Below are positions 4,813 through 58,583 of a DNA stretch of 64,000 bases, piece after piece (within the stretch, counting starts at the first letter, position 1; each line of letters begins with the position of its first letter). This stretch comes from Candidatus Poribacteria bacterium (lineage in GTDB: Bacteria; Poribacteria; WGA-4E; WGA-3G): NCBI GenBank assembly GCA_022821495.1, contig JAJEDN010000104.1:14043-78042 (forward strand), written 5' to 3'. A program made the translations under genes and the position numbers. The notes under the pieces were generated by a model, which saw only the letters and a list, made by a program, of their open reading frames with translations, was not told where the DNA came from and did no database searches.

Positions 4813-4853
4813 CCAAATCGACGCTCAATAAGAATAGGATCACTACACGGGAA

Positions 4854-5204
4854 TGGAGGTGGCGGGAATCGAACCCGCGTCCGAAGGCATTTCAATAGAG
4901 GCTACTACATGCTTATCACAGGTTTTGAGGTTCGTCTATAAGACTCCCCTGTGCAGGATTCAGCATAGACTATCTCAAAAGTGGTTCGCGGCACGCTCCT
5001 TGAGAATGAGCGAGCGGCTAGCCCGTATTGCGACGCTTTAACTTCCCTGACGGGCAACAGGTCGGTCAAGCGTAGCCGCGTTTAGGCAGCTAGTGCTAAT
5101 TCTTCATCAGCATTTATAAGTGTTCCGCCTATTTAACGAGGCCTGCGGAGACCTCGGCATGCAACCTATATCTCATCCACCTTCGTCGAAACCTTGACAC
5201 CCCC
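4854..5204 (-). ncRNA. ssrA: tmRNA (SsrA)
   Basis: 5' end GGGGGTGTCAAGGTTTCGACG. 3' end GCGGGTTCGATTCCCGCCACCTCCA. The acceptor stem has a G3:U pair. Internal reading frame ends NADEELALAA-TAA (stop at 5082-5084). Lies directly downstream of smpB. CCA is not encoded. Confidence 0.9.
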
Positions 5205-9859: not shown

Positions 9860-10024
9860 AGGACCTACGCATTCCCGCTCAAAGTCCCCCTGATAAGCGG
9901 GATTTAGGGGGTTAAAGATGCTCTCAAAGTCCCCTGATAAGGGGGATTTAGGGGGTTAAAAAATACGGAAATCACCGCTCTTTGCGTCTAAATGTCCGAT
10001 ATTTTCCCGATTTGCGTAAGTCCT
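9860..10024 (+). repeat. R1 MITE with two tandem cores
   Basis: TIRs AGGACCTACGCA (9860-9871) and TGCGTAAGTCCT (10013-10024). Core AAAGTCCCCCTGATAAGGGGGATTTAGGGGGTTAAA occurs twice. Ends 45 bp from the 3' end of tRNA-Leu. Confidence 0.7.
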
Positions 10025-10068
10025 ACGCAAAAGAGAAAGCGATGGCTCTATCAGAAACCATCGCCTAA

Positions 10069-10153
10069 TGCCGGAGGTCGGACTCGAACCGACACGGACC
10101 CAGGGCCCGCGGGATTTTGAATCCCGTGCGTCTACCAGTTTCACCACTCCGGC
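10069..10153 (-). tRNA. tRNA-Leu(CAA)
   Basis: Reverse complement reads GCCGGAGTGGTGAAACTGGTAGACGCACGGGATTCAAAATCCCG...GGTTCGAGTCCGACCTCCGGCA. Long variable arm and anticodon loop TTCAAAA. Confidence 0.9.
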
Positions 10154-24268: not shown

Positions 24269-24442
24269 AATGGAGAACGGATATACGCAATAGAACACTA
24301 AAGCATCAACACACCTGAACGATCCGCAAGGAAATATAAAAAAATGGAGAACGGATATACGCAATGAGACTCAAAAGCATCAACACACCTGAACGATCCG
24401 CAAGGAAATACAAAAAACCGAACCGCAAGGTATTATAAAAAA
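24269..24442 (+). repeat. R2 element, about 2.3 tandem units of 74 bp
   Basis: Unit is AATGGAGAACGGATATACGCAA...CCGCAAGGAAATATAAAAA. The final partial unit ends CCGAACCGCAAGGTATTATAAAAAA and overlaps the stop codon of the minus-strand gene at 24433. Confidence 0.7.
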
Positions 24443-30574: not shown

Positions 30575-30704
30575 AGAACTTACGCAGTACCTCTCAAAGT
30601 CCCCCTGATAAGGGGGATTTAGGGGGTTAGGATTTAGGGCTGTTTCGTAGAAATCTCGGCACCTCTTAAAGTCCCCCTGATAAGGGAGATTTAGGGGCTT
30701 AAAA
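30575..30704 (+). repeat. R1 element with two cores and only the left TIR
   Basis: AGAACTTACGCA is followed by two AAAGTCCCCCTGATAAGGG(G/A)GATTTAGGGG cores. Confidence 0.65.
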
Positions 30705-34993: not shown

Positions 34994-35030
34994 TTTTTAG
35001 TAATGTCGGACGGGTTCGTAACCCCCAAAA

Positions 35031-35123
35031 ATAAACAGACCTCTTTGTAGCATAACCTGTTAGGTTGTGCCAGTGTGAATGCCTGTCATAGGTATTCACA
35101 CTGTTTGAGAGTACCCAATTAAT
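35031..35123 (+). repeat. R6 element, copy 1
   Basis: About 93 bp: CAGACCTCTTTGTAGCATAACCTGTTAGGTTGTGCCAGTGTGAATGCC...CCCAATTAAT. Near-identical to 36967-37061. Confidence 0.7.
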
Positions 35124-35125
35124 TT

Positions 35126-35263
35126 AGGACTTACGCGCCGCTTCTTAAAGTCCCCCTGATAAGGCGGTGTTTTTGCTGGGGTGTTTCTTAGGGGGTTAAA
35201 AATATGGAAAATATCGTTTTCTGCGTCTAAATGTCCAATATTTCCTCAATTTGCGTAAGTCCT
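35126..35263 (+). repeat. R1 MITE with an R3 insert inside the core hairpin
   Basis: TIRs at 35126-35137 and 35252-35263. The core CCCCCTGATAAGG is interrupted by CGGTGTTTTTGCTGGGGTGTTTCTT (35165-35189) before AGGGGGTTAAAAA. Confidence 0.7.
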
Positions 35264-35308
35264 GAATAATTATAAACATCACCGGGATAGATTGCGAAGT
35301 TGTAAAAA

Positions 35309-36715: not shown

Positions 36716-36966
36716 TTCGCGTTTCCTTGTTGTATAAATATTTAGGAGATAGCTAGACAGACTCTAGCTGTTTTGTCAATTTTATAGATAACATGAGTTT
36801 GAGAATAAACCGGAGTCAACCGTTAACCAATGGAGCGAATGTTTGCTATCCGCTTCGTACCGCGCCTCGCGACCCATCGCAAGACAATTGACACACTTAT
36901 TCAGTTATAATAGGTCAATTATTGTCTTTATTCAATCAAAAAAACAAAAACTCTATACCTAACCAT

Positions 36967-37061
36967 AAATAAGCAGACCTCTTTGTAGCATAACCTGTTA
37001 GGTTGTGCCAGTCTGAATGCCTGTTATAGGCATTCAGACTGTTTGAGAGTGCCCAATTAAT
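36967..37061 (+). repeat. R6 element, copy 2
   Basis: Direct repeat of 35031-35123, with paired G/C changes that keep the long stem intact. Confidence 0.7.
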
Positions 37062-40024: not shown

Positions 40025-40083
40025 CTTCGTCCCATTCGTCATTTGTTTCTCAAAAGCATTTTGGTTCGCAGTTCTCATCTAAT

Positions 40084-40220
40084 GCCCCCCTGATAAGGGG
40101 GGTTAGGGGGGTTAGGGGCGTTATCTTCTTATACTAAAATCGGAAAATATGTTTACACTTCGCCCCCTCGTAGGGAGTTTTGCTGGAGTGTTTCTTCAAG
40201 GGGCACCCAGCCCTACGAGC
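40084..40220 (+). repeat. composite repeat: R1 core, then an R5 segment, then a hairpin with an R3 insert
   Basis: CCCCCCTGATAAGGGGGGTTAGGGGGGTTAGGGG. TTATACTAAAATCGGAAAATATG resembles 42688-42722. CTCGTAGGG-[R3]-CCCTACGAG lies at 40167-40219. Confidence 0.6.
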
Positions 40221-40259: not shown

Positions 40260-40288
40260 TTGACATCCGCTTGAACCTACGTTATAAT
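40260..40288 (+). promoter_or_regulatory. consensus sigma70 promoter TTGACA-17-TATAAT upstream of fic
   Basis: Hexamers at 40260-40265 and 40283-40288. Confidence 0.55.
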
Positions 40289-40363
40289 ATGATAGTATTA
40301 TCAAAAATAGGGAAAAATGACAACACAAATTTGCCATTTTCAAAAAGAGGCGAAAACGGTAAT

Positions 40364-41491
40364 ATGCAAAATTTTACAGCGGGCGTGTACCGACAGCAGC
40401 GAGAATACAAGAGTTTTAGTCCATCTTTCATCAACCATCCTTTTGCTTGGGAGAACCGTCAAATAGATCAGTTGGTTGAACAAGCTGCCAATCTTTTGGG
40501 AGCACTCAAGACTTATGCGGAAATCGTTCCAGATGTCGATTTCTCGATGCCAATGAGTATCGCAAAAGAAGCGATAGACTCTAATCTGATTGAAGGCACA
40601 AAAACTAAGATTGATGAGGTCGTTCTGCCACAAACAGAGATTCCAGCAACCCGACGGGCTGATTGGGAAGAAGTCCAAAATTATATTGAAGCCATGAATT
40701 TCGCGATAGCCGAACTCCCAAGAATCCCACTTTCTATGCGACTTCTCAAAGATGTCCATAAAATATTGATGTCCGGTGTTCGTGGAAGACATAAGGCACC
40801 CGGCGAAATTCGTAGAAGCCAAAACTGGATCGGTGGTGCGTCGCTCGCAGACGCGCTTTTCGTCCCTCCCTCACCGGAAGAACTGCCCGATCTTCTAAGC
40901 GATCTGGAAAAATTTTGGCACAACACATCACTCCAACTACCTTACCTTATCAAAATCGCTATTACACACTATCAGTTTGAAACCATCCATCCGTTTTTGG
41001 ACGGCAATGGAAGGTGCGGAAGACTTTTAATCGTTTTGCAACTCATCGACGCACAATTGCTTAGCAAACCTATCCTTTACGCATCCACCTTTTTTGAGAA
41101 AAACAAGGTCTCATACTACAATTCACTGACCCGTGTTCGCACTGCAAATGACTTGGAACAGTGGATCGTATTTTTCTTAATCGGAATCGTCGAGACTGCC
41201 CAGCACGGACTCAAAACATTCAAAGCGATTATTGCACTCCGCGAAGAATATGATACCAAAATCCTAACACTCGGTCCTCGAGCAAAAAACGCACAAAAAT
41301 TGCTTCACCTTATGTATGCCACACCTATCATTAACGCGAGATCCGTTGAAAAGGAATTAGAAATAAGCTTTTCAAGCGCGAATCGACTCCTAAAATCCTT
41401 AACAGCACTCGGTGTCTTGAAAGAGACCACTGGACACTCCCGTAACCGCCTCTTCGTATTGGAGAAATACCTGAATCTCTTTAGAAGTTAG
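40364..41491 (+). CDS. Fic family protein
   Basis: Fic motif HPFLDGNGRCGRLL and a C-terminal wHTH-like region. The ATG at 40364 is preferred. Confidence 0.85.
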   Translation: MQNFTAGVYRQQREYKSFSPSFINHPFAWENRQIDQLVEQAANLLGALKTYAEIVPDVDFSMPMSIAKEAIDSNLIEGTKTKIDEVVLPQTEIPATRRADWEEVQNYIEAMNFAIAELPRIPLSMRLLKDVHKILMSGVRGRHKAPGEIRRSQNWIGGASLADALFVPPSPEELPDLLSDLEKFWHNTSLQLPYLIKIAITHYQFETIHPFLDGNGRCGRLLIVLQLIDAQLLSKPILYASTFFEKNKVSYYNSLTRVRTANDLEQWIVFFLIGIVETAQHGLKTFKAIIALREEYDTKILTLGPRAKNAQKLLHLMYATPIINARSVEKELEISFSSANRLLKSLTALGVLKETTGHSRNRLFVLEKYLNLFRS

Positions 41492-45504: not shown

Positions 45505-45597
45505 GCAAGGCTTTTGCTTGGGCGTTTCTTCAGATACACGGAGATGAATATGAAATCCCAGATCCACCCAAACGAACCGCAAGGTATAATTAAAAAA
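45505..45597 (+). repeat. R2 element (with R3 module) ending at the first conserved trpB codon
   Basis: GGCTTTTGCTTGGGCGTTTCTTCAGATACACGG...AACGAACCGCAAGGTATAATTAAAAAA. Confidence 0.65.
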
Positions 45598-49577: not shown

Positions 49578-52500
49578 ATGACAGAAGCGTCAATTCACGT
49601 ACAAGGTGCGCGAGAACACAACCTACGCAATATTGACATCCAACTGCCAAAAGATAAACTCATCGTCTTCACCGGCGTTAGCGGTTCCGGTAAATCCTCA
49701 CTCGCAATTGACACCGTTTACGCCGAAGGGCAACGACGATACATCGAGTCTTTATCCGCTTACGCACGGCAATTTCTCGGACAACTCGGAAAGCCAGATG
49801 TAGATGAAATCGTTGGGCTCTCCCCGTCTATCGCTATCAGTCAAGGATCAACCGGACATAACCCGCGCTCCACGGTCGCCACTGTAACCGAAATCTACGA
49901 TTACCTCCGTGTGCTCTATGCCCGTGTCGGGCAATTCCACTGCCCCGAATGCGGTCGTGAAGTCGGCTCACAAACGCCCGCGGACATCGTCAATACTTTA
50001 CTCGACTATCCCGAACGCACAAGGCTCATCATTTTAGCACCTATTGCCAGAGGTTCCCGCGGCGCACATGAAAAAGAAATCGAGGACCTACGAAACGCCG
50101 GTTTCGTCCGATTACGCGTGGATGGCGAAATACACGAAATCCGCCCAGGCTTCGCGCTCAGTCGCAACCAACGCCACGACATTGATCTCGTCATCGACCG
50201 GATCATCATCAAAGACGGCATCGAACCACGGATCACGCAGGCAGTAGACACAGCACTCTTGCGCGGAGAGGGTAGCATGCTTGTCCAAGTTGTTCCGATT
50301 GAAGGCGAGGCATCCCCATTTGTGTCAGAAGAAGACGACCTGCTCTTTAGTAGAGATTACACCTGTTCGCACTGTCGGATAAGTTTCGTGAAACCGGAAC
50401 CCCGCCATTTTTCTTTCAACAACCCCGACGGAATGTGTGAAAACTGCAGGGGTTTGGGTGTACAAATGGGGATCCTACCGCAGTTGATTATCCTTGATGA
50501 TACGCTCTCTATCATGAAAGGCGCTATCAGTCTGTGGGGCTCCCTTAACACGCAAAAACGGGCCACAGAAAAAGCCATCGCCGAAGCACTCGCAAGACAC
50601 CTCGGATTTGATGTCAAGACACCTTGGAAGGAACTCACACCGGAACAACAAAACGCTGTCCTCTACGGCACCGGCGACGACGTCCTCACGATTATCACCC
50701 AGGCAAAAAGCACACACAAAAAACGAAAACAACGCCGACGACACCGCGTCCACTTTCACGGTATCATCCCCGCTGAAGAACAGAAGTACTACTTTGATGA
50801 TGATGAAACCGATGAAGACGACTTTCCTGATTACTTCGTCAAAATGCCCTGTCGGGAATGTGAAGGGACCCGACTTAACTCGTGGACAAAAGCGATAACG
50901 ATAAACGAGACACCTATCACCGATATCCTTGAAAAATCTATTCAGGACGCGACCCATTTCTTCAATGAAGTCGAACTTCCTGAACGCGAGGCGTTCATCG
51001 CCAAGGAACTCCTGAAGGAAATTCGAGGACGGCTCGGATTCCTTATAGATGTCGGACTCGGATACTTGACGCTCTCACGTCCCGCACCGACACTTTCCGG
51101 CGGCGAAGCGCAACGCATCCGTCTCGCCAGTCAGGTAGGCGCAGGGCTGCGTGATGTTACCTACGTGCTTGATGAACCGAGCATCGGATTACACCCACGC
51201 GACCACGCCGGGCTACTCACGACACTCCTAAACCTACGGAATCAAGGCAATACCGTTATTGTTGTTGAACACGATGAGGCAACGATGTTGGTAGCTGACT
51301 GGATCATCGACTTCGGTCCTGGTGCAGGCATTAAAGGTGGAAAGATAACGGACATCGGGACACCCGCACAATTCATTAAGGAGAGTCGCACCCTTACCGC
51401 CCAATACCTTCGTGGCGATAAGGTAATCATCCAGCCAGAATCCCGCCGCCCAACAGGAGACAAATGGATACAGATACAGAATGCACGTCAAAATAACCTG
51501 AAAGCGATCAGCCCTAAAATACCGATCGGCACCCTCTGCTGTGTAACAGGCGTCAGCGGTTCAGGAAAGAGCTCCTTAATCCACGATATCCTCTACAACG
51601 CACTCGCTCGCGACCTCATGAAGGCAAAAACCGTGCCAGGTGACTACGACGATATCCGAGGGATCATCAAAGAAAAAGACGTACCTATCTCCAATGTTAT
51701 TGACAAGATTATCAACATTAACATGGCACCCATCGGACGAACACCACGCTCCAATGCTGCAACCTATACAAAGGTGTTTGATGCGATTCGCGCGCTCTAC
51801 GCCAGTTTGCCCGATGCGAAATTACGAGGCTATAAACCCGGACGGTTCAGTTTCAATGTTGCCGCCGGTAGATGTGAAGCATGTAGCGGCAACGGCGCAA
51901 AAAAGGTCGATATGGGGCTCCTCTCTGATGTCTGGGTGGAGTGTGAAGTGTGCAATGGGAAACGGTTTAACACCGAAACGCTCGCGATTAAATATAAAGG
52001 CAAAGACATCGCTGAAGTCCTCGAAATGGATATTGATACCGCACTCGTCCACTTCGCCGATATTCCAAGAATCGCAAGAGGGTTAAAACTACTCCACGAT
52101 GTCGGCCTCGATTACATTAAACTCGGACAACCCGCACCGACACTTTCCGGCGGCGAGGCGCAACGCATCAAACTTTCAAAGGAACTCTCCAAACGAGGCA
52201 CCGGCAAAACCCTCTATATACTTGATGAACCCACAACGGGGTTGCATTTTGACGATGTAAATAAACTACTAACGATCCTTCATCGACTCGTAGACGACGG
52301 TAACACCGTTGTCGTCGTAGAGCATAACCTTGAGGTCATCAATTCCGCAGACTACCTCATCGATTTAGGACCGGAGGGCGGCGTTGGCGGCGGCACCATC
52401 GTTGCCGAAGGCACACCTGAACAAATCGCTGAGATGCCTGAATCCTACACCGGACAAGCACTTCGCGGGGACTTCGATATCTCCTCTGCTTCCGACCCGA

Positions 52501-55439
52501 ATGAACCACAAGGTATAATTGCAGATTCCGACGAAATCGTAGCCCGTAACGAAGAGGAGGGCGGATATACGGAACGGAACGTGAAACGACCCATTCGCTT
52601 GAACGAACCGCAAGAGAAAACTAAAAACATCACAGTGCAAGGTGCTACCGAAAATAACCTCAAAAACGTGGACATCGATATCCCGCACCGAAAAATGACG
52701 GCGTTGACAGGGGTCAGCGGCTCTGGAAAGACATCTCTCGCACTTGATACTATCTACGCCGAAGGACAACGTCGTTATATAGAGACCCTTAGCACCTATG
52801 CCCGTCAGTTTATAGGACAGATGGAGAAACCGAAAGTCTCAAAAATTGAGGGACTTTCACCCGCTATCGCAATTTCAAATGCAAATGCAGGTCAAAACCC
52901 ACGCTCAACGGTCGCGACAATCACCGAAATCCACGATGGACTCCGCACGCTTTACGCCAGATGGGGGAACCCCCACTGTCCTGATTGTCTTGAAGAGGTC
53001 CAACCCCAAAGTGCCGAACAAATCACACAACAGGTTTTTGAAATCCTCCCGCAAGAGCGGGTGGATGTGCTTGCCCCGCTTACGAACTTTTTACTTATTT
53101 CAGATGCCGAAGAAAGCGTGTCAAGAGGTAAAATCATTGACATCAACGCCAATGAATCCGCTTATGGACTCAAGGGAAACGAGGATTACGCCGATGTATT
53201 CAGCCGATTGCAACGCGCAGGTTTCGCACGCGTCCAAATTGATGGCGAAATTCACAGACTTGATGAAGCTCCTAAACTTAGCAAAGGCATTCGCCATGAA
53301 ATTTTTATCGTCATAGATCGCGTCGAACTCGTTGACGCAGAAAAGGCGCGGTTTACGGAAGCCGTCGAATTAGCACTCCTTCAAAGCGGAGGGTTCGTAC
53401 TCATTCAGAAGACACGTTCCACCACTCGGGCATCCACGAGTAGCAACCGATCAAAACAAAAAACCACGGAAAAACCAGAGGCGGAGCCAACTGATAAAAA
53501 ATTCTTCAGCGAACACGCCATGTGTGCTTCCTGTGGTAGTAACTTCGCACAGCTGACACCACGCCACTTCTCCTTTAACAACAAAGTCGGCGCGTGCGAC
53601 TTCTGCGACGGACGCGGCAGGAATTTACACCCACCACACGACGCATGCAACCAATGTCAAGGCACTCGTCTGAAACCCTTTCCGAGCTGTGTCATGTTTG
53701 AAGATACAACCATCGCCGAACTGATGGAAATGTCAATTACCGAAACCATTGCTTTCTTCAACGTCCGGTTGAAAGAAATTGAAACGCAAGTCGGCAATGA
53801 AACACAAAACAGTAAAGCGGATCCTTCTGTAGCGAAAGGGGTGTCAACCTCCAGAGCGACACATCCTGCACTCCATGTACACACTTCGCCTGAATTTGAA
53901 GCCGAAGTCCTCCAGCAAATTCAGATACGCCTTCAGTTCTTAGAAGATATCGGTCTCGGTTACCTCGCATTAGACCGTGGGGCACCGACGCTTTCGGGCG
54001 GCGAAATGCGTAGAATCCAACTCGCAAGTCAACTCGGCAGCGGGCTCACCGGCGTAACCTATATCCTCGACGAACCGAGCATCGGGCTACACCCGCGCGA
54101 CCAAGAACGTCTCATCAACGCGCTCAAGGAACTCCGCGATATCGGCAACAGCGTCCTCGTCGTTGAACACGATCGCGATACAATATTAGCCGCCGACCAT
54201 GTGATTGACTTCGGACCTCAGGCAGGCAAAAACGGTGGTGAGATTGTCGCTACCGGTACACCGGACACCTTCACTATAGAAGGTAAAGAGGTTTCCGAGA
54301 GCCATAAATCATTGACGCAAGCCTATCTTTCCAATGAAGTCGAAATCCGTGTTCCAAAAACGCGACGTAAAGGGACAGGCAAACAGTTGGCAATCTCCGG
54401 GGCGAAAACGAATAACCTCAAAAACATTGATGTCAAGATTCCGCTCGGAACACTCACCTGTGTAACCGGTGTTTCCGGGTGCGGAAAAAGCTCACTCGTT
54501 GAAGGCACACTCAAACCAGCACTTGAAAGTCGCAGCTCTATCAAAACCGGCGATGCCGAAGATCGCCGTTATACCCACCATATCAGCGACAACCAGCGGG
54601 AACCCATATATAACGACTACGGGGTACCGGAGTATGAAAGCATCCGCGGTGTTAGCTATATCAAGCGGCTCATCAACGTAGACCAGAAGGCGATCGGTGA
54701 AACACCGCGTTCCAATCCTGCCACTTATACCGATTTGTTCACGAAAATCCGTGAACTCTTCGCCGAGCAACAAGATGCCCAGATGCGCGGCTTCGGTATC
54801 AGTATGTTCAGCTTCAACCTTGCTGCTGGACAGTGCCACGTATGCGAGGGACACCGCTTCAATCGTATCGAGATGCATTTTCTGCCGGATGTCTGGATAC
54901 CGTGTGAAGCGTGTAATAGCACGGGTTACAATATGGATACGCTTGAGATTCGTTATAATGGGAAAAATATCGCTGAAGTCTTAGATATGACGGTAGATGA
55001 GGCACTCACATTCTTCAGTGACAGTTCACGTATCTGCCGGACACTCCAGATGTTAGCAGATGTCGGATTGGGCTACATCCAGTTAGGTCAACCCGCGACG
55101 ACACTCTCCGGCGGTGAGGCACAGCGCGTCAAACTCGCGAAAGAGTTAGCACGCCGCCAAACCGGTTCAACGCTCTATATCATGGATGAACCGACCACAG
55201 GACTCCACTTTGATGACATCCAAAAACTCCTCAAAGTTCTGAACAGGCTCGTCGATGCGGGGAACACAATCATCGCTGTGGAACACAACATCGATGTCAT
55301 CAAATCCGCAGACTGGATTATCGACTTGGGACCGGAGGGCAGTAAAGGCGGCGGAAACGTCGTTGCAATGGGCACACCAGAACAGGTCGCATCGGTCCAA
55401 GAATCCCATACGGCTCGCTTCTTACGTGAAGTCTTGTAA
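49578..55439 (+). CDS. uvrA: tandem UvrA-UvrA fusion (excinuclease ABC subunit A x2)
   Basis: Four Walker A motifs (GVSGSGKS, GVSGSGKS, GVSGSGKT, GVSGCGKS), four LSGGE signatures and zinc CxxC modules in both halves. Canonical UvrA C-terminus ...HTARFLREVL at the end. Confidence 0.88.
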   Translation: MTEASIHVQGAREHNLRNIDIQLPKDKLIVFTGVSGSGKSSLAIDTVYAEGQRRYIESLSAYARQFLGQLGKPDVDEIVGLSPSIAISQGSTGHNPRSTVATVTEIYDYLRVLYARVGQFHCPECGREVGSQTPADIVNTLLDYPERTRLIILAPIARGSRGAHEKEIEDLRNAGFVRLRVDGEIHEIRPGFALSRNQRHDIDLVIDRIIIKDGIEPRITQAVDTALLRGEGSMLVQVVPIEGEASPFVSEEDDLLFSRDYTCSHCRISFVKPEPRHFSFNNPDGMCENCRGLGVQMGILPQLIILDDTLSIMKGAISLWGSLNTQKRATEKAIAEALARHLGFDVKTPWKELTPEQQNAVLYGTGDDVLTIITQAKSTHKKRKQRRRHRVHFHGIIPAEEQKYYFDDDETDEDDFPDYFVKMPCRECEGTRLNSWTKAITINETPITDILEKSIQDATHFFNEVELPEREAFIAKELLKEIRGRLGFLIDVGLGYLTLSRPAPTLSGGEAQRIRLASQVGAGLRDVTYVLDEPSIGLHPRDHAGLLTTLLNLRNQGNTVIVVEHDEATMLVADWIIDFGPGAGIKGGKITDIGTPAQFIKESRTLTAQYLRGDKVIIQPESRRPTGDKWIQIQNARQNNLKAISPKIPIGTLCCVTGVSGSGKSSLIHDILYNALARDLMKAKTVPGDYDDIRGIIKEKDVPISNVIDKIININMAPIGRTPRSNAATYTKVFDAIRALYASLPDAKLRGYKPGRFSFNVAAGRCEACSGNGAKKVDMGLLSDVWVECEVCNGKRFNTETLAIKYKGKDIAEVLEMDIDTALVHFADIPRIARGLKLLHDVGLDYIKLGQPAPTLSGGEAQRIKLSKELSKRGTGKTLYILDEPTTGLHFDDVNKLLTILHRLVDDGNTVVVVEHNLEVINSADYLIDLGPEGGVGGGTIVAEGTPEQIAEMPESYTGQALRGDFDISSASDPNEPQGIIADSDEIVARNEEEGGYTERNVKRPIRLNEPQEKTKNITVQGATENNLKNVDIDIPHRKMTALTGVSGSGKTSLALDTIYAEGQRRYIETLSTYARQFIGQMEKPKVSKIEGLSPAIAISNANAGQNPRSTVATITEIHDGLRTLYARWGNPHCPDCLEEVQPQSAEQITQQVFEILPQERVDVLAPLTNFLLISDAEESVSRGKIIDINANESAYGLKGNEDYADVFSRLQRAGFARVQIDGEIHRLDEAPKLSKGIRHEIFIVIDRVELVDAEKARFTEAVELALLQSGGFVLIQKTRSTTRASTSSNRSKQKTTEKPEAEPTDKKFFSEHAMCASCGSNFAQLTPRHFSFNNKVGACDFCDGRGRNLHPPHDACNQCQGTRLKPFPSCVMFEDTTIAELMEMSITETIAFFNVRLKEIETQVGNETQNSKADPSVAKGVSTSRATHPALHVHTSPEFEAEVLQQIQIRLQFLEDIGLGYLALDRGAPTLSGGEMRRIQLASQLGSGLTGVTYILDEPSIGLHPRDQERLINALKELRDIGNSVLVVEHDRDTILAADHVIDFGPQAGKNGGEIVATGTPDTFTIEGKEVSESHKSLTQAYLSNEVEIRVPKTRRKGTGKQLAISGAKTNNLKNIDVKIPLGTLTCVTGVSGCGKSSLVEGTLKPALESRSSIKTGDAEDRRYTHHISDNQREPIYNDYGVPEYESIRGVSYIKRLINVDQKAIGETPRSNPATYTDLFTKIRELFAEQQDAQMRGFGISMFSFNLAAGQCHVCEGHRFNRIEMHFLPDVWIPCEACNSTGYNMDTLEIRYNGKNIAEVLDMTVDEALTFFSDSSRICRTLQMLADVGLGYIQLGQPATTLSGGEAQRVKLAKELARRQTGSTLYIMDEPTTGLHFDDIQKLLKVLNRLVDAGNTIIAVEHNIDVIKSADWIIDLGPEGSKGGGNVVAMGTPEQVASVQESHTARFLREVL
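52494..52628 (+). repeat. R2 element sequence forming the in-frame linker between the two UvrA units
   Basis: AATGAACCACAAGGTATAATT..GTAGCCCGTAACGAAGAGGAGGGCGGATATACGG..AACGTGAAACGACCC..GAACGAACCGCAAGAGAAAACTAAAAAC is collinear with 58444-58583 and 57585-57673. Confidence 0.7.
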
Positions 55440-57584: not shown

Positions 57585-57673
57585 GTAGCCTGCAACAACG
57601 GCGCAGGCGGATATACGCAAAGGCACGTGAATGTCCTAACCACCCTGACCGAACCGCAAGGAATAATTAAAAA
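57585..57673 (+). repeat. R2 element ending exactly at the ATG at 57674
   Basis: GTAGCCTGCAACAACGGCGCAGGCGGATATACGCAAAGGCACGTGAATG...CCGAACCGCAAGGAATAATTAAAAA. Confidence 0.65.
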
Positions 57674-58447: not shown

Positions 58448-58583
58448 AGTAGCCCGTAACGTAGTGGAGGGGTTTTTGCTTGGGCGTTTCTTCAGATATA
58501 CGGGAAGACACGTGAATGCCCAAATTTACATTACCGAACCGCAAGGAACAATTAAAAACCGAACCGCAAGGAAAATTAAAAAG
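58444..58583 (+). repeat. R2 element (with R3 module and a duplicated tail) ending exactly at the ATG at 58584
   Basis: GTAGCCCGTAACGTAGTGGAGG-[GGTTTTTGCTTGGGCGTTTCTTC]-AGATATACGGG..CACGTGAATG..CCGAACCGCAAGGAACAATTAAAAACCGAACCGCAAGGAAAATTAAAAAG. Confidence 0.7.

Follow-up and report, generated by a model that had tools for sequence, protein, structure and literature searches.

A head-to-tail UvrA fusion of Candidatus Poribacteria as a probable single-chain, asymmetric pseudo-dimer

A tandem uvrA gene (49578–55439, + strand) is carried by a stretch of 64,000 nucleotides from Candidatus Poribacteria bacterium (contig JAJEDN010000104.1, positions 14,043 to 78,042), referred to below as the window. 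UvrA works as a dimer, in which two insertion domains clamp the DNA (PMC11985968; PMC12796330). How the symmetric UvrA2B2 assembly gives rise to an asymmetric pre-incision complex, in which a single UvrB sits on the damaged strand, is a stated open question (PMC11985968). The window protein is probably a single-chain UvrA pseudo-dimer with built-in asymmetry, whose two fused units would fold back onto each other. Only the first unit contains the insertion domain, and the C-terminal zinc finger has been altered in the second.

The open reading frame (ORF) starts with ATG at 49578 and extends over 1953 codons without internal stops to the stop codon at 55437–55439; GC content is uniform over its length, and the mass of the product is estimated at about 215 kDa. 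As the original prediction held, it encodes two complete UvrA units arranged head to tail in one frame, separated by a linker of 52 amino acids (aa), and both units match UvrA equivalog models. Unit 1 (aa 1–965, 49578–52472, +), a complete class I UvrA, passes the cutoffs of the NCBIfam models NF001503 (1326 bits, cutoff 1147) and TIGR00630 (1273 bits). Unit 2 (aa 1018–1953, 52629–55436, +), a class I-like UvrA in which the insertion domain is absent, passes TIGR00630 (1063 bits, cutoff 730) and lies slightly below the cutoff of NF001503 (1094 bits). The whole protein satisfies both equivalog models (NF001503, 2420 bits; TIGR00630, 2332 bits). The units share 45–49% identity along their full length, the insertion domain excepted.

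A protein 100% identical to the product is present in public data, and full-length matches are found in at least 120 clusters (1841–1999 aa, 69–93% identity), the named ones being labelled ‘excinuclease ABC subunit UvrA [Candidatus Poribacteria bacterium]’. A conservation scan with one genome per species yielded 71 loci, about 69 of them from Poribacteria genomes, and in these the gene is an uninterrupted frame of approximately 1900–2000 codons, many of the genomes being closed long-read chromosomes. The exceptions are contigs ending within the gene and one metagenome-assembled genome (MAG), L023 (JAJEGI010000020.1). In this relative (94% identity) a frameshift lies inside unit 2 near the ‘SESHKSL’ insert, not at the junction between the units, and could be either an assembly error or a genuine disruption.

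The ATPase and zinc motifs predicted for each unit were recovered by a motif scan of 66 aligned Poribacteria sequences. Walker A, Q-loop, LSGGE, Walker B and H-loop are found in the two nucleotide-binding domains (NBDs) of each unit, and all four motif sets are invariant or nearly so. Walker A of NBD-I in unit 1 (aa 33) is located at 49674–49697 (+), and the other three at 51549–51572, 52710–52733 and 54468–54491 (aa 658, 1045 and 1631); LSGGE begins at aa 506, 856, 1472 and 1843. Each unit has 12 conserved cysteines in three Cys4 modules, for which zinc binding is predicted from sequence, and all 12 of unit 2 are invariant in the 66 sequences. A UvrB-binding domain, predicted through PF17760, is present in both units. 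In unit 1 it lies between the halves of zinc module 1 (aa 126–262, 49953–50363, +; PF17760 at aa 132–238), and in unit 2 (aa 1139–1301, 52992–53480, +) it has two inserts and corresponds to the second PF17760 stretch; both were also recognized by a hidden Markov model (HMM) built for this analysis.

The insertion domain, the remaining hallmark of class I, is present once per chain instead of once per unit. In unit 1 this DNA-binding domain (aa 295–424, 50460–50849, +; PF17755 at aa 301–405) fills the 130 aa between the halves of zinc module 2, CENCRGLG (aa 287) and CRECEGTRL (aa 425). PF17755 has no second match in the protein, and reading of the zinc module bears out that unit 2 has only 9 aa at this place (RNLHPPHDA), between CDFCDGRG (aa 1340) and CNQCQGTRL (aa 1357). 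The motif-to-motif spacing in this collapsed module (aa 1340–1365, CDFCDGRGRNLHPPHDACNQCQGTRL, 53595–53672, +) amounts to 17 aa for most Poribacteria, with 18–27 aa in five divergent ones, and its four cysteines are invariant in the aligned Poribacteria sequences.

Purifying selection acts strongly on both units. The ratio of nonsynonymous to synonymous substitution rates (dN/dS), calculated for the window gene against approximately 50 relatives, is 0.060 for unit 1 and 0.079 for unit 2, and 0.085 and 0.12, respectively, for their UvrB-binding domains. Of the two, unit 2 has evolved a little faster, and both look functional in their sequence.

A second asymmetry lies in the C-terminal zinc finger, which bears the long beta-hairpin of signature domain II. 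In 167 UvrA units of other tandem proteins, 113 columns are at least 90% conserved; unit 1 keeps all 113 and unit 2 keeps 108, the changes being S1052T, G1760R, G1781S, R1783G and G1922S. Three of these five fall within the C-terminal zinc finger and hairpin of unit 2 (aa 1753–1784, 54834–54929, +), where the other units have glycine (165/167), glycine (158/167) and arginine (159/167) at the columns of residues 1760, 1781 and 1783. The corresponding segment of unit 1 (aa 766–797, 51873–51968, +) has a canonical zinc knuckle by the same column counts, and its hairpin tip has changed: Phe755 of Clostridium thermocellum UvrA (numbering transferred via the K39A and K647A entries) corresponds to Phe1768 in unit 2, where it is kept, and to Leu781 in unit 1, where phenylalanine has been lost. 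It is through that phenylalanine that the two hairpin tips of ordinary UvrA stack on each other, and hairpin movement is coupled to closure of the distal ATPase site (PMC12796330). With the tip phenylalanine only in unit 2 and the canonical knuckle only in unit 1, features present twice in a homodimer are, by these alignments, shared out between the two halves. The change of the zinc finger is specific to Poribacteria: among 35 domain-less unit 2s from elsewhere, 31 keep the canonical knuckle.

Failure of unit 2 to align end to end with UvrA had been named beforehand as a ground for abandoning the tandem reading. It aligns along its whole length with Thermotoga maritima UvrA 3PIH (E = 5e-250), save for the missing domain and some inserts. 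An AlphaFold model of unit 2, built with 34 sequences as input, has a mean predicted local distance difference test (pLDDT) of 78 and a predicted template modelling score of 0.71. The low-complexity inserts noticed earlier in this unit are real and form low-confidence loops in the model: those of the UvrB-binding domain have pLDDT below 50, as does part of the insert in signature domain I (approximate boundaries aa 1400–1438, 53775–53891, +), which is delimited by the gap against unit 1 and 3PIH. Foldseek places the model with class I UvrA, at template modelling (TM) scores of 0.71–0.77 to 2R6F, 3UWX and 3ZQJ. Against core-only entries TM rises to 0.91, normalised to target; this value is reached with 6N9L (T. 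maritima UvrA d117-399), in which, as predicted for unit 2, the ATPase core folds without the domain. Laboratory deletions, among them one made in E. coli UvrA (Wagner et al. 2011, cited in PMC11985968), take the domain out of both halves of a homodimer, whereas the window protein is a natural loss in one half only. The mutant is reported to discriminate damaged DNA poorly.

The fusion is not a singular case. Tandem UvrAs are present in the databases in more than 100 clusters at 50% identity, all named plain ‘UvrA’. In a full-library search with unit 2, with one representative taken per 50%-identity cluster, the best 150 representatives were nearly all tandem or partial tandem UvrAs (approximately 1200–2343 aa), three being near single-unit length; a search of this kind ranks tandem proteins at the top because both their units score. 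Their sources are Chlamydiota, Planctomycetota, Fibrobacterales and others. Domain HMMs built for this analysis showed 48 clusters to have a complete unit 1 and a unit 2 without insertion domain, which is the commonest tandem architecture, and 23 to have two full units. The UvrB-binding domain is in neither unit of about 28 clusters (about 1600 aa), and the insertion domain has gone from unit 1 in 3–4. The 28 or so are fused class II-like UvrAs, such as P0171, P0178, P0190, P0202 and P0214; four clusters have the insertion domain missing from both units. The short zinc module 2 was verified by sequence reading in at least 35 of the 48 clusters. The layout was defined as a single ORF in which unit 1 has, in this order, Walker A, UvrB-binding domain, insertion domain and a second Walker A, and unit 2 has a UvrB-binding domain between its two Walker A motifs, with the halves of module 2 in unit 2 no more than about 80 aa apart; the window protein (P0001), the representative of its cluster (P0016) and at least 35 other clusters show it. 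No paper dealing with tandem or fused UvrA turned up in a literature search, though a mention in the Goosen and Moolenaar review or the Marszalkowska classification is possible.

Two near relatives, a hot-spring Poribacteria MAG (L068) and a locus labelled Gemmatimonadetes (L070), retain the insertion domain in unit 2, so by sequence comparison its loss is a derived state in the sponge-associated Poribacteria. The nearest relatives of unit 1 outside Poribacteria, P0121 (2334 aa) and P0122 (2343 aa), are likewise tandem and about 400 aa longer than the others. Assigning orthology from BLAST scores added up over the two units was dropped as inconsistent, since NBD-I and NBD-II cross-match, and was replaced by a trimmed alignment and a neighbour-joining tree (185 units, 729 columns). 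In this tree unit 1s and unit 2s each group inside several separate tandem lineages, and domain-less unit 2s are spread over at least four of them. This suggests old fusions followed by repeated loss of the insertion domain, nearly always from unit 2.

Each unit of the window protein shares the domain order and the three zinc modules of the canonical class I homodimers (E. coli; 2R6F/3UWX; 3PIH; 3ZQJ; C. thermocellum 9GXK), in which NBD-I buds the UvrB-binding and insertion domains and NBD-II carries the zinc finger and beta-hairpin. It differs from them in joining two units in one chain instead of pairing two identical chains. Unit 2 departs further from canonical class I UvrA in its lack of the insertion domain, its altered zinc knuckle and its extra disordered inserts, and the tip phenylalanine is confined to one unit. 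Closest in layout are the tandem proteins of Fibrobacterales (MDB9744133.1) and Planctomycetota (RME03298.1), in which a full unit is followed by a UvrB-binding unit with 6–50 aa between the halves of module 2; they are only 41–53% identical to the window protein, belong to different tree lineages and, like most domain-less unit 2s of other phyla, keep the canonical C-terminal knuckle altered in Poribacteria.

Head-to-tail fusion in one ORF, annotated simply as UvrA and with a UvrB-binding domain per unit, is also found in Chlamydiota, where C. trachomatis CT333 uvrA has 1786 aa (PMC6686042). The comparison rests on environmental Chlamydiota sequences plus the CT333 length; tandem UvrAs of Chlamydiales, Parachlamydiales and Simkania have approximately 1860–1900 aa. 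A recognisable unit 2 insertion domain is found in 55 of the 118 Chlamydiota-like relatives scanned, unlike in the window protein, and in the named examples the Walker A spacing of unit 2 equals that of unit 1, which is also not the case here. They form a separate tandem lineage in the tree. A dedicated long-UvrA model of 1809 positions exists in NCBIfam (NF001885, PRK00635), which we take to describe the Chlamydia form. Membership of the window protein in this family was rejected (1291.5 bits, cutoff 3054), and the related tandem proteins P0199, P0203 and P0147 likewise fall below its cutoff.

Fusion of equivalent ABC halves is known from full-length ABC transporters, ABC-F proteins and ABCE1, which are single chains whose halves later diverged. 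They are comparable by analogy only, as examples of fusion permitting lasting asymmetry, for they join single NBDs in other assemblies with other functions, while in the window protein whole two-NBD proteins are fused.

In the pseudo-dimer proposed here, unit 1 and unit 2 would fold onto each other and reproduce the head-to-head assembly normally built from two identical chains, with the linker serving as a loose tether only. Asymmetry would become possible because the two protomers are encoded by distinct stretches of one gene and could diverge freely. Unit 1 would supply the full damage-sensing kit, that is, the DNA-clamping insertion domain and the canonical C-terminal zinc knuckle. Unit 2 would contribute both its ATPase sites, a complete set of zinc ligands, a UvrB-binding domain and the only aromatic hairpin tip, having lost the insertion domain and altered its knuckle. 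Such a sensor would combine four ATPase sites and two docking sites for UvrB with one DNA clamp, and from this single clamp a fixed polarity on DNA would follow. In ordinary UvrA both the insertion domain and the UvrB-binding domain project from NBD-I, and repositioning of the former is coupled to the latter (PMC11985968; PMC12796330).

The original prediction of a covalently linked, intrinsically asymmetric pseudo-dimer stands in its covalent and asymmetric parts (insertion domain in unit 1 only, changed zinc finger in unit 2). Several points weigh against carrying it further. Pairing within the chain, a part played alongside UvrB and UvrC in nucleotide excision repair, and any effect of a single clamp are inferred. 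The shortest natural linkers comprise about 20 residues of variable sequence, which may or may not be enough to bridge the two units. An ordinary single uvrA in the same genomes, if present, would change the role of the tandem protein. As to repeated domain loss, the deep branches of the tree are very short and have no support values, so that any count of events is provisional.

The possible alternatives rank with pairing between chains ahead of a separate role of unit 2, and this ahead of internal initiation. If the chain were not folded back, two or more tandem chains could pair between molecules (1 with 1′ and 2 with 2′, or swapped), giving the equivalent of two dimers or an open chain. Each unit has all the parts of a UvrA protomer, except for the insertion domain in unit 2, and could pair with any other, and the sequence data do not fix which units do so. 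The tether, however, strongly favours pairing within the chain, and a pair of two unit 2s would have zero insertion domains. The steady, directional divergence of unit 2 and the one-sided, repeated loss fit best if unit 2 always meets unit 1. Pairing between chains is thus considered rather improbable, though it survives better than the other alternatives.

Less probable still is that unit 2 is not the partner protomer of unit 1 but a paralogue joined to it that does other work, for example a UvrA2-like accessory or drug-resistance module. Stand-alone paralogues that miss a domain do act outside excision repair, as with the class II UvrA Ecm16; in class II the insertion domain is kept, whereas zinc module 1 and the UvrB-binding domain are missing (PMC9328131). 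Like Deinococcus radiodurans UvrA2 (2VF7) and Ecm16 (7SH1), unit 2 is a UvrA relative minus one of two accessory domains, and its somewhat faster evolution and its NF001503 score below the cutoff would agree with a departure from the standard function. It is nevertheless the reverse of class II, which is stand-alone and unfused: the insertion domain is lost, and the UvrB-binding domain is kept under purifying selection. Membership of the window protein in class II (UvrA2, DrrC, Ecm16) was rejected, since zinc module 1 and PF17760 are present in each of its units. Unit 2 is closer to class I structures (39–45% identity) than to UvrA2 and Ecm16 (29–34%), which stand lower in the Foldseek ranking, and its retention of nearly all the near-invariant class I columns also speaks against a separate job.

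The linker (aa 966–1017, 52473–52628, +) is acidic, of low complexity and hypervariable between species. Mean identity to the window residues is 17%, with no conserved column, and dN/dS is about 0.5, near-free of constraint. At least four mutually unrelated forms occur among the Poribacteria loci compared (L001–L069), in which the distance from the GPEG motif of unit 1 to the first Walker A of unit 2 is 87–123 residues. Some linkers resemble translated simple repeats, e.g., ‘KDGRMEETEGWKKWKDGK’ and ‘QQETGRMEERKDGAFTLPPF’. In the window, 52553–52626 (+) is an in-frame copy of a 74-nt intergenic repeat (family D1), recognized by alignment and motif counts, with further copies at 24269, 24343 and 57599. 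These patterns suggest that in-frame insertions or replacements have occurred repeatedly at this site. Because it is hypervariable and tolerates replacement, including by a copy of an intergenic repeat, the linker looks like a passive tether.

The repeat (approximately 74–88 nt, GATATACGG..ACGTGAA..GAACGAACCGCAAGGAATAATTAAAAA) occupies 24269–24416, 45509–45596, 57599–57672 and 58471–58571, plus 52497–52626 within uvrA. The copies at 24269, 24343 and 57599 lie just 5′ of start codons, and those at 45509 and 58471 are related; the genes downstream are unrelated to each other. ORF calls extend into the repeat, which gives ‘NEPQGIIKK’ in translation. Its 3′ end, AAGGA followed by an A-rich tail, resembles a portable ribosome-binding leader. 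A 17-mer of the repeat adjoins genes in 11 related Poribacteria loci, and the repeat has no family match in Rfam.

In the window lineage, unit 2 could conceivably also be translated on its own from a second start in the linker, given that other copies of this repeat place AAGGA, an A-rich spacer and ATG just 5′ of genes, and that an in-frame GTG follows three codons past the equivalent position. In the linker copy, however, AAGGA is degraded to AAGAGA and the position of ATG reads ATC, and most Poribacteria linkers are unrelated and without the repeat. Promoter-like sites within the gene are at background (8 vs 6.7 expected), and the open frame is maintained in all lineages, which makes an internal start very unlikely. 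Internal terminator signals within the gene likewise show no excess over background. The merging of two adjacent uvrA genes by a sequencing or assembly error has a negligible probability and is excluded as an artefact for the window gene, because the junction (52450–52650), for which a check for a missed stop or frameshift had been proposed, is open in about 69 species genomes assembled independently of one another, many of them closed chromosomes, with different linkers all in frame.

The gene is flanked upstream by what we take, from translations read by eye, to be an Era-like GTPase and downstream by a presumed DnaJ-domain protein; the flanking genes give no hint on function. Elsewhere the window contains a transfer-messenger RNA gene (4851–5204, −, 183 bits) and a tRNA gene (10069–10153, −). 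Short intergenic repeat families are located at 9860–9914, 30575–30701, 35126–35180 and 40060–40114, with further repeat pairs at 35025–35123 / 36963–37061 and 9952–10031 / 35191–35270; one of these families has the palindromic core AAAGTCCCCCTGATAAGGGGGATTTAGGGGGTTA, and another is a 99-nt pair with 93% identity. The ORF at 40271–41491 (+) contains the motif HPFLDGNGRCGRLL, presumably a Fic-domain signature as read by eye.

A wider reading can be offered tentatively, at a probability well below that of the pseudo-dimer itself. Once UvrA units are fused, one insertion domain may become dispensable and be lost, almost always from unit 2 and independently in several phyla; recognition would then need only one clamp, and single-chain sensors would bind DNA with fixed polarity. 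That one insertion domain suffices for the gene to stay under strong selection is already shown by these proteins. On this reading, binding with fixed polarity may bias which UvrB is retained, and hence which strand is cut. Poribacteria would then be furthest along this route, with hairpin and zinc-finger elements divided between the halves. More than 100 clusters of double-length UvrAs, in several distinct layouts, are all annotated alike as ‘UvrA’. In a homodimer, mutating one protomer mutates the other, whereas a natural single-chain UvrA allows the ATPase site, the UvrB-binding domain, the hairpin or the clamp to be changed in one half only. The main value of the window protein would therefore be as a natural tool to break the symmetry of UvrA experimentally.

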